Notes: generated by a model from the letters alone, not told the origin. Counted from the stretch's first letter, positions 32,696-39,793 are shown. The stretch is DNA of 54,121 nt from Flavobacteriales bacterium (GCA_049609625.1 JBMYYR010000005.1:1-54121); one strand, 5' to 3'. A program made the numbers and translations.

Positions 32696-32739
32696 AACGT
32701 TACGCCAATGTAAACTTAAGGTTATGTTTGGTTTACATT
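32696..32739. promoter_or_regulatory. PhoB/OmpR-type direct-repeat box upstream of the porin gene
   Basis: Plus-strand AACGTTA-N4-AATGTAA-N4-AAGGTTA (32696-32724) gives three 7-mers with 11-bp period. One inverted copy, TTACATT, lies at 32733-32739. Confidence 0.55.
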
Positions 32740-32822
32740 AGGCTTTGGCTTATCAAAATAAGTGAAATAAATAAAAAATTATGGTTTCATTTGCAAGCTC
32801 ATTCAATTGTAAAAAAAACATT

Positions 32823-34016
32823 ATGAAATCAACACTTAGCACAATTCTGTTCGTTTTTAGCCTGGCACTACAGGCTCAAATTGAAATTCCGACCTACAAC
32901 GGTGGCCTTATTTTTCAGGCAAAAGACAAAAGCTTTAAAGCCAAACTTAATTTCAGAATGCAAAACCTGATGACTGTAGATTTTGCAAACAATGGCGCCG
33001 AGACCAAAACCAATATGCTCGTCAGGAGAGCCCGTATTAAGCTGGCTGGCTATGCCCTGAACCCCAAATGGAAATATAAATTTGAAATGGGCTTGAGCAA
33101 TCGTGATATTGGCGCAAGTTCTGATTTTGAGCAAGTTAATTCAGCTTCAAGACTTATTCTTGATGCCGTTGTGAAATATCAGGCGCACAAAAATCTTGAG
33201 CTCTGGTTTGGGCAAACCAAATTGCCCGGCAACCGCGAACGGCTTATTTCTTCTCAAAATCTTCAATTTGTAGACCGTAGCTTAGTCAACAGCAGCTTCA
33301 ACATCGACCGCGACATGGGCTTTCAGGCACATTATAGCAAAACCATAGGCAAATCTGTAGCCCGAGCAAAAGGAGCTTGGTCTATGGGCGATGGGCGAAA
33401 CATAACAAAAGGTAATTTTGGAGGTTTTGGCTTCACTGGTAGACTTGAGTTTTTGCCTTTCGGCGAATTTTCTAAACGTGGAGACTATTTTTCGGCGGAT
33501 TTAACACGTGAATCACAACTAAAATTAGCATTCGGATTAACTTATGATTTGAATGATGATGCGTCGCGGCAAGGTGGTCAGCTAAAAGGTTTTGTTTTTG
33601 ATAAGTCTGGAGATGAAATTTTTACCGATTTAAGTTCGGTCATGTTCGATTGGATGTTTAAATACAAAGGCTTCTCTTTTCAGGGTGAGTTCATCGACAA
33701 AATTGGCGACAAAAGAGCTAGTATGCTTTTCGCTACGGCAACACCCGAAAACAGATTCAGAACAGGAAGAGGGTTCAATGCACAACTTGGATATGTGTTT
33801 GAAAACAACATCGAACTTGCGGGAAGATTTACCCGTATTTCTCCAAACTATTACTCTTCGCTCAACGAGCTTAATGAATACACCATCGGGCTATCAAAAT
33901 ACCTAAAAGGACACAAACTAAAAGTGCAAACAGACCTTAGCCTGACTGATAAAAAATACATTAGTAAAGGCGAAAATGCCTACAGATGGAGGTTTCAGGT
34001 TGAGTTCGGGTTCTAA
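32823..34016 (+). CDS. phosphate-selective porin (OprO/OprP family)
   Basis: Signal peptide ending AQ, VRRARIKLAG, FGQTKLPGNRER..SS..LQFVDRS, DRDMG, amphipathic strands and terminal FQVEFGF. Start set at ATG 32823. Confidence 0.85.
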   Translation: MKSTLSTILFVFSLALQAQIEIPTYNGGLIFQAKDKSFKAKLNFRMQNLMTVDFANNGAETKTNMLVRRARIKLAGYALNPKWKYKFEMGLSNRDIGASSDFEQVNSASRLILDAVVKYQAHKNLELWFGQTKLPGNRERLISSQNLQFVDRSLVNSSFNIDRDMGFQAHYSKTIGKSVARAKGAWSMGDGRNITKGNFGGFGFTGRLEFLPFGEFSKRGDYFSADLTRESQLKLAFGLTYDLNDDASRQGGQLKGFVFDKSGDEIFTDLSSVMFDWMFKYKGFSFQGEFIDKIGDKRASMLFATATPENRFRTGRGFNAQLGYVFENNIELAGRFTRISPNYYSSLNELNEYTIGLSKYLKGHKLKVQTDLSLTDKKYISKGENAYRWRFQVEFGF

Positions 34017-34038
34017 TGTTTAGACTAATTCTAGGCTT

Positions 34039-34075
34039 AAAAAAGGTGTTCGATGGATTTTGAGCACCTTTTTTT
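34039..34075 (+). terminator. intrinsic terminator after the porin gene
   Basis: AAAAAAGGTGTTCGA-loop-TTGAGCACCTTTTTTT hairpin (with G-U pairs) followed by a T tract. Confidence 0.8.
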
Positions 34076-34199
34076 GTGAACCATACCACGGCCTTTACTT
34101 CTCGATTCGCTCTCATCCATTTGATTTAGAAATGATGAAGATAATCCAGTGATTTTTAAGTATATTTGTTTTTTTTATTCATTTTTTAATGCTTTTGTT

Positions 34200-37606: not shown

Positions 37607-38269
37607 CTATTGAATGGAGTATGTGTATTTCAAAGAAAGCACATCAGCCGTTGCTGGTTCAAGAGCCTTTAATTCTTTTTCATAAAGGTAATATAAGGCT
37701 ATTTTTCCGTGATTTGCCAGTTTAAAACTTGTGCCTATCGAAAGGCGATAGCTTGTTGGTCTGTCGGCACTGGTATCTAGCGAATTGAATAGCTCCCCAG
37801 AAACTTCGGGATCAAATTTCCAGTTACTGATATTATAATCTGCTTCTAGCTTGAGGCGCAGGTCGTCCTTTGTGTCTGTTTTATCCTCAAATGCTTTCCG
37901 ATGCTGAACACGCACAACAGAACTAAGTGCCAGGCGGTCAAATTTATATTTATATTTTAAGCCCAGTTGATACCGAATAAAGTGTTCGTAACCTTGCTTT
38001 TTGCCTTCGTTGTCATTTTTGTTGATGAATCTAAGAGCTGAAACGAGTTCAAAGTGGTCGTTTAGTTTATATTTTGCTCCAAGCTGAGTAAGAAGTCCTT
38101 TTATTTCGCTAGAATTTTTGTCTAAGCGCATTTGCTCTTTTAGGCTGAACGTCCAAACTGACTTGTGTTTATACTGTAAGCCAAGAGAAGTCCAAGATTC
38201 AAAATCTCTGCTTTGAGCCAAACCAAGCGTAGAAACAATAAGCATAATGCTTAGAAACTTAATGCGCAT
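37607..38269 (-). CDS. DUF2490-family outer-membrane beta-barrel protein
   Basis: Signal peptide ending LAQ, then DFESW. Alternating hydrophobic strands, R..QHR, LRLKL.ADYNI.NWK.DP..SGELF, terminal LSLKYTYSIQ. ATG 38269 preferred over 38293. Confidence 0.75.
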   Translation of the reverse strand: MRIKFLSIMLIVSTLGLAQSRDFESWTSLGLQYKHKSVWTFSLKEQMRLDKNSSEIKGLLTQLGAKYKLNDHFELVSALRFINKNDNEGKKQGYEHFIRYQLGLKYKYKFDRLALSSVVRVQHRKAFEDKTDTKDDLRLKLEADYNISNWKFDPEVSGELFNSLDTSADRPTSYRLSIGTSFKLANHGKIALYYLYEKELKALEPATADVLSLKYTYSIQ

Positions 38270-38882
38270 TTTTGGGCGAGTTGTGATCTTCATAATAGTA
38301 AATAGTTAGGTTTGCGGTGTCTTTTAAAAAGTCGATGTTTTTGACAAGTACTTTTTCAATACTTAAGCCCGTTCGATGTTCCAAATCAGACTTTAATTTG
38401 TCGTAATGTTCTGGCTTTATCAATTCGATGTTTTCGTAAACAATATTTTTTTCTGTATAACGCTTCGCTAGCCAATAGAACTCCAACAAGGCAATAGAAG
38501 CCGTAACGGCAATATTGGCCATAAAAATCTCGGCGTAACTCATTCTTTTGTTTGCCAAAGCATTGATAACAGAAACACCGATAACAACAAATAAATAGGT
38601 CATTTCCTTAATCGGTATGGGATCTGTTCGATAGCGAATAATTCCAAAAATAGCAAACAGCCCTAAAGCCATACCAATATCCAATTCATATTTTTTTAAC
38701 GTAAAACAGAGTAAAAACACAATTATGCTTATCATATAAAACGTAAACAGATAGTCTCGCAATTTTGAGGTTCTGAAATACAAATATTGAATGATTAGTG
38801 TGGTGAATGTCAGATTGATAAAAAATCTGAAAATCAACTTAATAAAATCATCATCGTAGACGGGAATCCCTAAAAAATCCAT
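38259..38882 (-). CDS. DUF4956-family inner-membrane protein
   Basis: About five TM helices with the family signature GMALGLFAIFGIIRYRTDPIPIKEMTYLF, followed by a small soluble C-terminal domain (IVYENIELIKP...DL..RTGL.I...IDFLKD). Confidence 0.88.
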   Translation of the reverse strand: MDFLGIPVYDDDFIKLIFRFFINLTFTTLIIQYLYFRTSKLRDYLFTFYMISIIVFLLCFTLKKYELDIGMALGLFAIFGIIRYRTDPIPIKEMTYLFVVIGVSVINALANKRMSYAEIFMANIAVTASIALLEFYWLAKRYTEKNIVYENIELIKPEHYDKLKSDLEHRTGLSIEKVLVKNIDFLKDTANLTIYYYEDHNSPKNAH

Positions 38883-38896
38883 GTGTTTTTTGTTGC

Positions 38897-39634
38897 TTAA
38901 AGGTTATTTATTTTAAAAAGTTTTTGCTTGAATCTATTGTATTTCAAGTTCTTATACAAACTCAACATGCCGATGCAGTATTTACTGATGCTGTAAGGAT
39001 AAAATCGAAATGTTTTAAGAACCGACACGATAGGTGTGTGCCGATTGTAGGCTCTTTGTTTTACTTCCACAACAACAAGCTTGTCGTAAAGCACTTTTTT
39101 TTCATCCGATTGGTAATAAATGTCAAAATCAATCGTAATGCGCTCTTTGTTTTGAATATTTACCAAAGTGATACGCTTAAAACCATTCCAAAGTGTTGCT
39201 ATCAATGTATGGTCTTTTGCTGTTGTTTCTTTAATAAACGTCTTGGAGTTGGCAGATAGATGCGTTTCAAAATCTTCAATTCTAATTCTGGATTTATCTG
39301 TTTCGCCTTTGTTGTTTTTTTGCTTTATTTCTAAAAAAAATAAATCTGATTCAACATAGTTTCTGATACGTACTTTGGTGCGGTTAGGCCTGGCGTTGTG
39401 ATGATCGTTGTAAAATTGATTTTCTGGCGAATCAAAATACAAAGACTTATAGGTCATTATCCGATTTCCAGAAATTTCGAGCACCCGATATTGATCAGAA
39501 ACAGACTCTAAAATAGGCGCTAGCTTAGCTATTGGAATCACAAATTTTGTGTCCGTTCGTTTCATCAACGCCACCTCATTCATCTCTGCTAAAGAGATGC
39601 TCGAAAAGGTGTTGATTTGATTTTGAATGGACAT
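38897..39634 (-). CDS. VTC-domain (polyphosphate polymerase-like, TTM/CYTH superfamily) protein
   Basis: LMKRTDTKF, SLYFDS...FY.DH...R.KVRIRNY, FLEIKQK, RITLV...ERITIDFDI, VVEVK, ISKYCIG. No TM helix, signal peptide or SPX domain. Confidence 0.9.
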   Translation of the reverse strand: MSIQNQINTFSSISLAEMNEVALMKRTDTKFVIPIAKLAPILESVSDQYRVLEISGNRIMTYKSLYFDSPENQFYNDHHNARPNRTKVRIRNYVESDLFFLEIKQKNNKGETDKSRIRIEDFETHLSANSKTFIKETTAKDHTLIATLWNGFKRITLVNIQNKERITIDFDIYYQSDEKKVLYDKLVVVEVKQRAYNRHTPIVSVLKTFRFYPYSISKYCIGMLSLYKNLKYNRFKQKLFKINNL

Positions 39635-39761
39635 AGAAATATTCTTAAAAGTGGACTAAGATATGCTTTTTATAAGACTACAACCTGAAAAACGTTAAAA
39701 AATCGGTCTTTAATCTATTTTAAGCAAGTTGCGCTCTGTTCATATTATTTTTGGCTGTCTT

Positions 39762-39793
39762 CAAATCTACCTTTTTGGATTTTTCTATCTTTG
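39762..39793. promoter_or_regulatory. back-to-back -7 elements: TAGATTTG (minus, 39762-39769, VTC operon) and TATCTTTG (plus, 39786-39793, relA/spoT)
   Basis: Two TAnnTTTG matches 16 nt apart on opposite strands in the 207-nt divergent intergenic region. Confidence 0.5.

Follow-up and report, generated by a model that had tools for sequence, protein, structure and literature searches.

In eukaryotes, Vtc4 coupled to a channel moves polyphosphate (polyP) out of the cytoplasm; in yeast this is the VTC complex (Vtc4/Vtc3/Vtc1). How bacteria place polyP outside the cytoplasm is, to our knowledge, not known. The bacterial genes closest to those described here are accessory genes of Gram-positive pel operons, which, according to one study, comprise cotH, a “poly-phosphate polymerase”, DUF4956 and DUF4832 (Whitfield 2020, PMC7112168). 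For the SIR_1594-1592 genes of Streptococcus intermedius, a 2025 mBio paper (PMC12345266) reports that deletion of the DUF4956 or the CotH gene lowers aggregation in sputum medium by more than 50% and also changes Pel levels, and that the CotH/polymerase/DUF4956 triad was not found outside pel loci. The same families are carried by NELoc-2 of Clostridium perfringens, and BT3498-99 of Bacteroides thetaiotaomicron are DUF4956 and DUF2490. Here we analyse a stretch of 54,121 nucleotides from a Flavobacteriales bacterium (GCA_049609625.1, JBMYYR010000005.1:1-54121; hereafter the window), in which a VTC-DUF4956-DUF2490 operon and a convergent CotH gene form one copy of a widespread, conserved accessory module. 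Its invariant core, as predicted from the protein sequences, is a soluble Vtc4-like tunnel enzyme together with the membrane protein DUF4956. An earlier note on this DNA had read these genes, along with a neighbouring porin gene, as a system that makes polyP and passes it through the envelope. All five of its domain calls (VTC, DUF4956, DUF2490, CotH, Porin_O_P) hold in profile searches, and the genes are arranged as follows.

38897-39634, minus strand: VTC-domain soluble triphosphate-tunnel enzyme, candidate polyP polymerase (245 amino acids (aa); Pfam 108 bits)
38259-38882, minus strand: DUF4956 predicted inner-membrane protein (207 aa; Pfam 174.6 bits)
37607-38293, minus strand: DUF2490 barrel (228 aa; Pfam 79.8 bits; N-terminal signal-like sequence)
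34149-37478, plus strand: CotH-family kinase (1109 aa; Pfam CotH 116.7 bits)
32781-34016, plus strand: Porin_O_P-family barrel (411 aa; Pfam 47.7 bits, cut-off 20.9)

The three minus-strand genes are tightly packed, VTC and DUF4956 being separated by a 14-nt gap and DUF4956 and DUF2490 overlapping by 35 nt. The porin and CotH genes are adjacent on the opposite strand, with CotH convergent to the operon. We counted these genes in 117 loci around VTC genes. A Pfam-model search of 201 Bacteroidota genomes found VTC in 34, DUF4956 in 65, CotH in 82 and DUF2490 in 71, and yielded a phylum sample of 37 loci, namely the window and 36 of the 37 VTC matches outside it (a 54-residue fragment, G023:C160, is omitted), each with about 10 kb on either side, less at contig ends. 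The other 80 are the closest VTC loci in a species-representative genome collection; they are mostly from Flavobacteriales, and also from Planctomycetota, Chloroflexota, one Arenicella and one Heimdallarchaeota bin. Locus genes were labelled with home-made profiles, and CotH was counted with a profile anchored on 11 Pfam-verified CotH domains. Our first CotH profiles had drifted via shared CHB_HEX and type IX secretion system (T9SS) domains; all ten of the extra candidates checked proved not to be CotH, and the resulting count of 18/37 was discarded.

DUF4956 was present in every one of the 117 loci (37/37 in the phylum sample and 80/80 among the closest), adjacent to VTC and on the same strand in 115 (35/37 and 80/80). 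DUF2490 lay within 1.5 kb in 49 loci (8/37 and 41/80), and CotH within 10 kb in 43 (9/37 and 34/80), where CotH copy numbers and genome sizes predict 0.89 by chance among the 37 phylum-sample loci. A homologue of the window porin was found in four (2/37 and 2/80). Such neighbour counts are lower bounds, because in 19 of the 80 closest loci the contig breaks off within 3 kb on one side. The commonest order in Flavobacteriales operons is VTC-DUF4956-DUF2490-CotH. Of the 42 loci with CotH at 3 kb or closer, 41 have it on the same strand, the window being the sole opposite-strand case. Across the 201 genomes, CotH occurs in 62 of the 65 with DUF4956 vs 20 of the 136 without it, and in all 34 with VTC vs 48 of the 167 without. 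VTC, DUF4956, DUF2490 and CotH cluster more than by chance; the porin does not. The operon and its link with CotH, which the earlier note had drawn from a single locus, recur widely, and its caveat that kinase and porin are linked by position only may be relaxed for CotH, given the shared strand in 41 of 42 loci. The lack of enrichment near VTC-DUF4956 pairs that the note had named as grounds for giving up its idea was seen for the porin and not for CotH or DUF2490.

Compared with the Gram-positive pel triad, the module joins the same three families in one operon, with CotH predicted to be secreted. The window differs in coming from a diderm, in lacking pel genes, in having an additional outer-membrane barrel and in the T9SS tail of its CotH protein. 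Contrary to the statement in the mBio paper, we find the triad without pel in Flavobacteriales, Planctomycetota and Deinococcus, where a CotH-VTC-DUF4956 operon stands alone on a plasmid. We conclude that the module exists, is conserved and has been described only in part: the CotH-polymerase-DUF4956 triad is already known beside pel operons, and the diderm versions with a barrel or adaptor are new as far as our searches show, these having covered the literature apart from supplementary figures S4-S7 of the pel papers, which may bear on novelty. The earlier view that no functional characterisation existed is amended to that extent, since the triad beside pel and the mild aggregation phenotypes of its knock-outs are published; for bacterial VTC proteins it stands, the literature searched (supplements aside) giving no functional study of one.

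Like the yeast complex, the window enzyme has a Pfam VTC domain (PF09359, 108 bits against a gathering score of 23), which covers profile positions 1-235 of 235, and a triphosphate-tunnel fold. Its AlphaFold2 model (mean predicted local distance difference test, pLDDT, 96.2) has 3g3r, 8i6v and 3g3q as top Foldseek matches (E 3e-12 to 2e-11, TMq 0.63-0.66), and the yeast Vtc4/Vtc2/Vtc3 tunnels (TMq 0.62-0.66) rank ahead of YgiF and CYTH enzymes. According to a cryo-EM preprint (bioRxiv 10.1101/2023.01.27.525886), polyP synthesis by Vtc4 needs K200, R264, R266, K281, Y359, R361, E426, S457 and K458; K458 is the only such residue lost in the inactive Vtc2/3, and Y359F lowers polyP in yeast. In a weak profile alignment to 3g3q, with a chain-to-Vtc4 numbering offset of 185 that is our own count, these residues fall on K30, R89, R91, K104, F152, R154, E190, S217 and K218, so that eight of the nine are kept, including the K458 equivalent K218. 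Across 55 VTC relatives S217 is conserved in at least 90%, and K30, R89, R91, K104, R154, E190 and K218 are invariant. The ninth position, equivalent to Y359, is Phe (F152), a reason for caution because Y359F lowers polyP in yeast. We take the protein to be a Vtc4-like tunnel enzyme and a candidate polyP polymerase, which agrees with the earlier assignment in the residues kept and qualifies it at the Phe.

The yeast complex and the window share a further feature, an obligatory pairing of the enzyme with a membrane protein that has conserved basic residues, here DUF4956. Unlike its yeast counterpart, the window enzyme is a separate soluble protein with no SPX sensor and with predicted activity only; its partner has five helices and an ACT-like domain rather than the three helices of the Vtc1 type, and the proposed destination of the product is the periplasm or cell surface, not the vacuole. 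Longer VTC fusion proteins were looked for without success, although a search of this kind depends on shared words and so carries little weight as evidence. The host assembly (1.94 Mb, 83% complete) has one VTC gene and four CotH genes, and encodes PPK1, PPK2 and PPX elsewhere, so the VTC enzyme would supplement ordinary polyP metabolism rather than replace it; “PPK-independent”, as the earlier note had it, does not apply in the sense of a PPK replacement.

The DUF4956 model consists of five helices and a small C-terminal alpha/beta domain, and R83 and R85 are invariant in 117/117 sequences. We propose that DUF4956 may act as a translocase or a hub. A complex prediction of DUF4956 with the VTC protein gave no verdict (score 0.00), and a protein Atlas search with DUF4956 added nothing. 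One 676-aa protein (P0151) is a fusion of DUF4956, one more hydrophobic segment and CotH. A kinase also accompanies DUF4956 in P0152, a 1060-aa protein of eukaryotic source that has a canonical Ser/Thr protein kinase and WD40 besides and is possibly an artefact of the gene model. In four of the 37 phylum-sample loci (L038, L039, L044, L049), DUF4956 adjoins an “SdiA-regulated / phytase-like” beta-propeller gene (~260 aa, with a signal), and its counterpart on an alphaproteobacterial (Aminobacter) plasmid (L154) bears the annotation “esterase-like phytase family protein”. The Heimdallarchaeota bin has a contig (L153) whose VTC-DUF4956 pair shares 43% identity with that of the window; binning contamination or gene transfer may account for it.

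At the outer membrane, the window DUF2490 protein (TC 1.B.81, putative porin) exceeds the Pfam cut-off, starts with a signal sequence and is modelled as a small beta-barrel, for which an Atlas search returned only barrels of the DUF2490 family as nearest structures (TM 0.80-0.89). DUF4956-linked copies form a low-scoring subgroup of this multi-copy family; among 46 of them, 12 positions are at least 80% basic vs 3 acidic. Elsewhere in the phylum sample a different part takes this place, namely a conserved protein of ~355 aa (345-386 aa) with no clear Pfam match, beside VTC-DUF4956 in 22 of the 37 loci. Its profile matches the membrane-fusion proteins AcrA, ZneB, EmrA and MacA (E 6e-7 to 3e-3), six of 16 members touch HlyD_3, and the Pfam-verified HlyD proteins of loci L041 and L058 group with it. 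DUF2490 and this HlyD-type adaptor never occur in the same locus. The order in L058 is CotH-DUF4956-HlyD-OEP-VTC, the sole locus with a TolC-like gene, and in L050 (VTC-DUF4956-Porin_O_P-like-CotH) a Porin_O_P-like barrel sits in the DUF2490 position. That two unrelated envelope-crossing parts share one place is the strongest indirect sign of something leaving the cytoplasm via DUF4956. The envelope crossing through DUF4956 and DUF2490 that the earlier note had suggested gains indirect support from this replacement, export itself being unproven. Compared with tripartite exporters (transporter, HlyD/AcrA adaptor and TolC factor), related loci pair DUF4956 with the adaptor and once with an OEP-family protein, whereas the window has the small barrel, with no HlyD-type adaptor and no OEP gene in 28000-50000, and DUF4956 is not an RND, ABC or MFS protein. 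Just upstream of the adaptor-VTC-DUF4956 trio in L043, L047 and L048 are two large T9SS-secreted alpha-amylases with CBM26.

The window CotH protein carries a signal sequence, LTD, CHB_HEX_C, CotH (residues 372-660), two Flg_new_2 domains and a T9SS sorting domain (TIGR04183, 32.5 bits, cut-off 23; Pfam Por_Secre_tail stays below its cut-off, 19.3 vs 27). With its hydrophobic N-terminus and C-terminal sorting domain it has both marks of T9SS cargo. Like the Bacillus spore-coat kinase (5jd9/5jda), it has a Pfam CotH domain, the profile of which matches B. cereus CotH 5jd9 at E 9e-43; as a single sequence, the domain gave no PDB match. Both catalytic-Asp motifs are kept, with N188/D190 and W216/D217 of the window fragment invariant in 18 sequences. 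They map to the catalytic aspartates of B. subtilis CotH, D228 and D251 (PMC7821199), if the B. cereus-B. subtilis numbering offset is four residues, as we infer. Unlike Bacillus CotH, the protein comes from a non-sporulating diderm, has the extra LTD, CHB_HEX_C and Flg_new_2 domains, and belongs to proteins that are T9SS-secreted or lipid-anchored. Of 22 short operon CotH proteins, 21 have a lipoprotein signal and, after it, an acidic stretch; such a stretch is a surface-export signal in Bacteroidota. The linked CotH is always predicted to be extracytoplasmic, as T9SS cargo in the window and mostly as lipoproteins in the short operon forms. Near CotH we also observed T9SS arylsulfotransferases (L051, L079) and, after the operon CotH of a Polaribacter bin (L075:13689-14753), a YHYH-domain protein with an EF-hand calcium-binding motif. 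In two Lutibacter loci (L089, L090) the VTC-DUF4956-DUF2490-CotH operon is followed by a LytTR-type two-component pair, and further downstream by an LTD-domain protein, window-porin homologues and an M14 carboxypeptidase.

The observed domain identities, fold, residue conservation, synteny and genome co-occurrence can be assembled into a mechanism in which the product of the enzyme, the transport, the membrane topology and the role of CotH are all predicted. At the cytoplasmic face, the VTC protein would use a nucleoside triphosphate to polymerise polyP, and a DUF4956 oligomer would carry the chain across the inner membrane, with R83/R85 where helix 3 is predicted to reach the cytoplasm. Passage through the outer membrane would then fall to the arginine-rich DUF2490 barrel, or in other Bacteroidota to a HlyD-type adaptor, and at the surface the polymer would act together with a lipoprotein or T9SS-secreted CotH kinase. 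Such trans-envelope polyP export, which leans on synteny and residue conservation, is plausible, fits best and is unproven; we hold it tentatively, at somewhat less than an even chance. Its most specific form is a dedicated bacterial polyP secretion machine, with the polymerase docked on DUF4956, lineage-specific conduits (DUF2490, or HlyD with a TolC-like factor) and exported polyP serving as phosphoryl donor or obligatory cofactor of CotH where ATP is scarce; this we consider doubtful.

Several observations weigh against export. The enzyme lacks SPX and a Vtc1-type membrane domain, Pfam finding VTC only, and DUF4956 only in its partner; one of its nine synthesis residues is the Phe described above, and the literature searched holds no biochemical data on any bacterial VTC-domain protein. 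In S. intermedius (PMC12345266), the polymerase (VTC-gene) deletion strain still aggregated, with no reduction reported. No outer-membrane or adaptor gene is adjacent in 6 of the 37 and 39 of the 80 loci, and the Planctomycetota loci and the Aminobacter plasmid locus are also without barrel and adaptor. The nearest same-family genome with VTC has VTC-DUF4956 only, without DUF2490, CotH or porin at the locus, and VTC did not turn up in the two genomes of the same genus (89% complete) or in a further one of the family (99% complete). P values for the clustering overstate its significance, because the sampled genomes are related to each other and not independent. The membrane protein itself gave no channel-like PDB match with Foldseek or VIA-align, only generic helical or ACT-like rows, and its weak resemblance is to MgtC, a protein that regulates and does not transport.

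In a rival reading the module would serve cytoplasmic polyP or phosphate homeostasis: polyP made by VTC would remain inside the cell, DUF4956, with its five helices and ACT-like sensor domain, would anchor or regulate in the manner of MgtC and be no conduit, and DUF2490, adaptors and CotH would be co-regulated surface functions. DUF4956 shares with MgtC an architecture of five helices and a C-terminal alpha/beta domain, and the two profiles match weakly, in register over 138 columns (hhalign probability 31%, E 5e-4); Pfam MgtC, on the other hand, has no match to DUF4956 at E<=0.01. The mBio paper describes DUF4956 as an MgtC membrane domain plus ACT (PMC12345266), and its preprint version suggested that polyP may stay cytoplasmic. 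The missing channel match and the many loci without envelope genes suit this account as well. What it leaves unexplained is the mutually exclusive DUF2490 barrel or HlyD adaptor (with or without a TolC-like factor) in the same operons, a linked kinase that is always extracytoplasmic, and the DUF4956-CotH fusion; we judge it rather unlikely. DUF4956 could instead be a general inner-membrane exporter or hub, with the tunnel enzyme serving another cargo (tri- or oligophosphate, or a nucleotide-derived kinase donor) or acting as a triphosphatase. Most triphosphate-tunnel families are hydrolases or cyclases, as among our lower-ranked folds, and the Phe in place of Y359 would fit. DUF4956 also occurs without VTC, which suggests that it may be a hub with VTC as one supplier among several, or that the cargo is not polyP. 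In family f27, 26 of 33 genomes have DUF4956 and two have VTC, and three VTC-less loci from it (L166-L168; genomes G028, G176 and G152) read DUF6580-DUF4956-HlyD-like adaptor-412-aa protein (no Pfam match)-short-chain dehydrogenase; another genome, G135, in which no VTC was found, has DUF4956-DUF2490 adjoining CotH. Such a hub is nonetheless unlikely in our estimate, as the best fold and sequence matches of the enzyme are to the polymerase family and not to CYTH/YgiF, the polymerase-specific K458 equivalent is invariant, and VTC was never seen without DUF4956 in the 117 loci.

Alternatively, the barrel may serve CotH: as in the barrel-lipoprotein pairs of Bacteroidota, DUF2490 would partner this surface protein at the outer membrane or anchor it there and would be no polyP pore, and polyP, if exported, would take other routes. 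DUF2490 stands directly before a CotH lipoprotein gene in many Flavobacteriales operons, and two DUF2490-CotH pairs (L175, G143:C22; L176, G099:C7), 0.7-2.3 kb apart, have no VTC or DUF4956 nearby, which hints at a separate barrel-CotH link. We nevertheless rate this reading as quite improbable: 20 of the 49 DUF2490 loci have no CotH within 3 kb, the window CotH is T9SS cargo and not a lipoprotein, and Arg or Lys occupies most of the conserved barrel positions. Finally, the five genes might be chance neighbours with no common function, for which one could cite the rarity of the porin, the opposite strand of the window CotH and the bare VTC-DUF4956 pair of the nearest same-family genome. Synteny and co-occurrence far above expectation for VTC, DUF4956, DUF2490 and CotH contradict this for four of the five genes, so that it stands for the porin only and is, for the set as a whole, very improbable.

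Like Pseudomonas OprP/OprO, the window porin scores above the Pfam Porin_O_P cut-off. It differs in matching through residues 55-190 alone, that is, profile positions 2-135 of 370 or the N-terminal third, and its match to the ExtI porin model (41.6 bits) falls far below the cut-off of 150. A 422-aa barrel in L086, considered as a homologue, is not one. With homologues in only 4 of 117 loci, the Porin_O_P gene is in all likelihood a bystander particular to its lineage, and its inclusion in the system by the earlier note is not borne out. Two further features flank these genes.

32707-32715/32731-32739: perfect 9-bp inverted repeat with a 15-nt spacer, possible operator, 42 nt upstream of the porin start
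~37527-37574: strong GC-rich hairpin with an A-run on one side and a U-run on the other, likely two-way terminator, between the convergent CotH and DUF2490 genes

The hairpin folds with a minimum free energy of -43.3 kcal/mol (146-nt stretch; z -4.76), equalled in 0 of 200 shuffles, and likely resembles a terminator shared by both strands. No terminator-like site was found in the porin-CotH intergenic region, so the two genes are possibly co-transcribed; rather than each having its own terminator, as previously described, they have none between them and the one hairpin at the CotH-DUF2490 convergence. The reported 11-bp-period repeats upstream of the porin could not be recovered either. Tandem Repeats Finder found nothing in 32400-32780, a direct-repeat search gave 0 families, and the inverted repeat at 32707-32739 is the sole repeat there. 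Base composition gave no island signal. Just upstream of the porin and divergent from it is a TonB-family gene (31808-32533, minus strand). On the other side, a gene for a full-length RelA/SpoT (p)ppGpp synthetase/hydrolase (39842-42097, plus strand) is divergent from the VTC operon across a 207-bp spacer; ppGpp raises polyP in E. coli. As a conserved neighbour RelA/SpoT was rejected, since the full-length gene occurs only in the window, and L063 and L064 have small RelA-like genes (~180 aa).

A polymerase with a membrane partner and envelope accessories makes the externalisation of polyP in bacteria a testable question. The dedicated secretion machine, if real, would account both for polyP on the outside of bacteria and for the role of CotH proteins other than those of spores. 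Confirmed export would assign a function to the bacterial VTC domain, DUF4956 and a DUF2490 subgroup, all three large families, as well as to many CotH kinases of non-sporulating bacteria, including those of the streptococcal Pel-biofilm loci and of C. perfringens NELoc-2.

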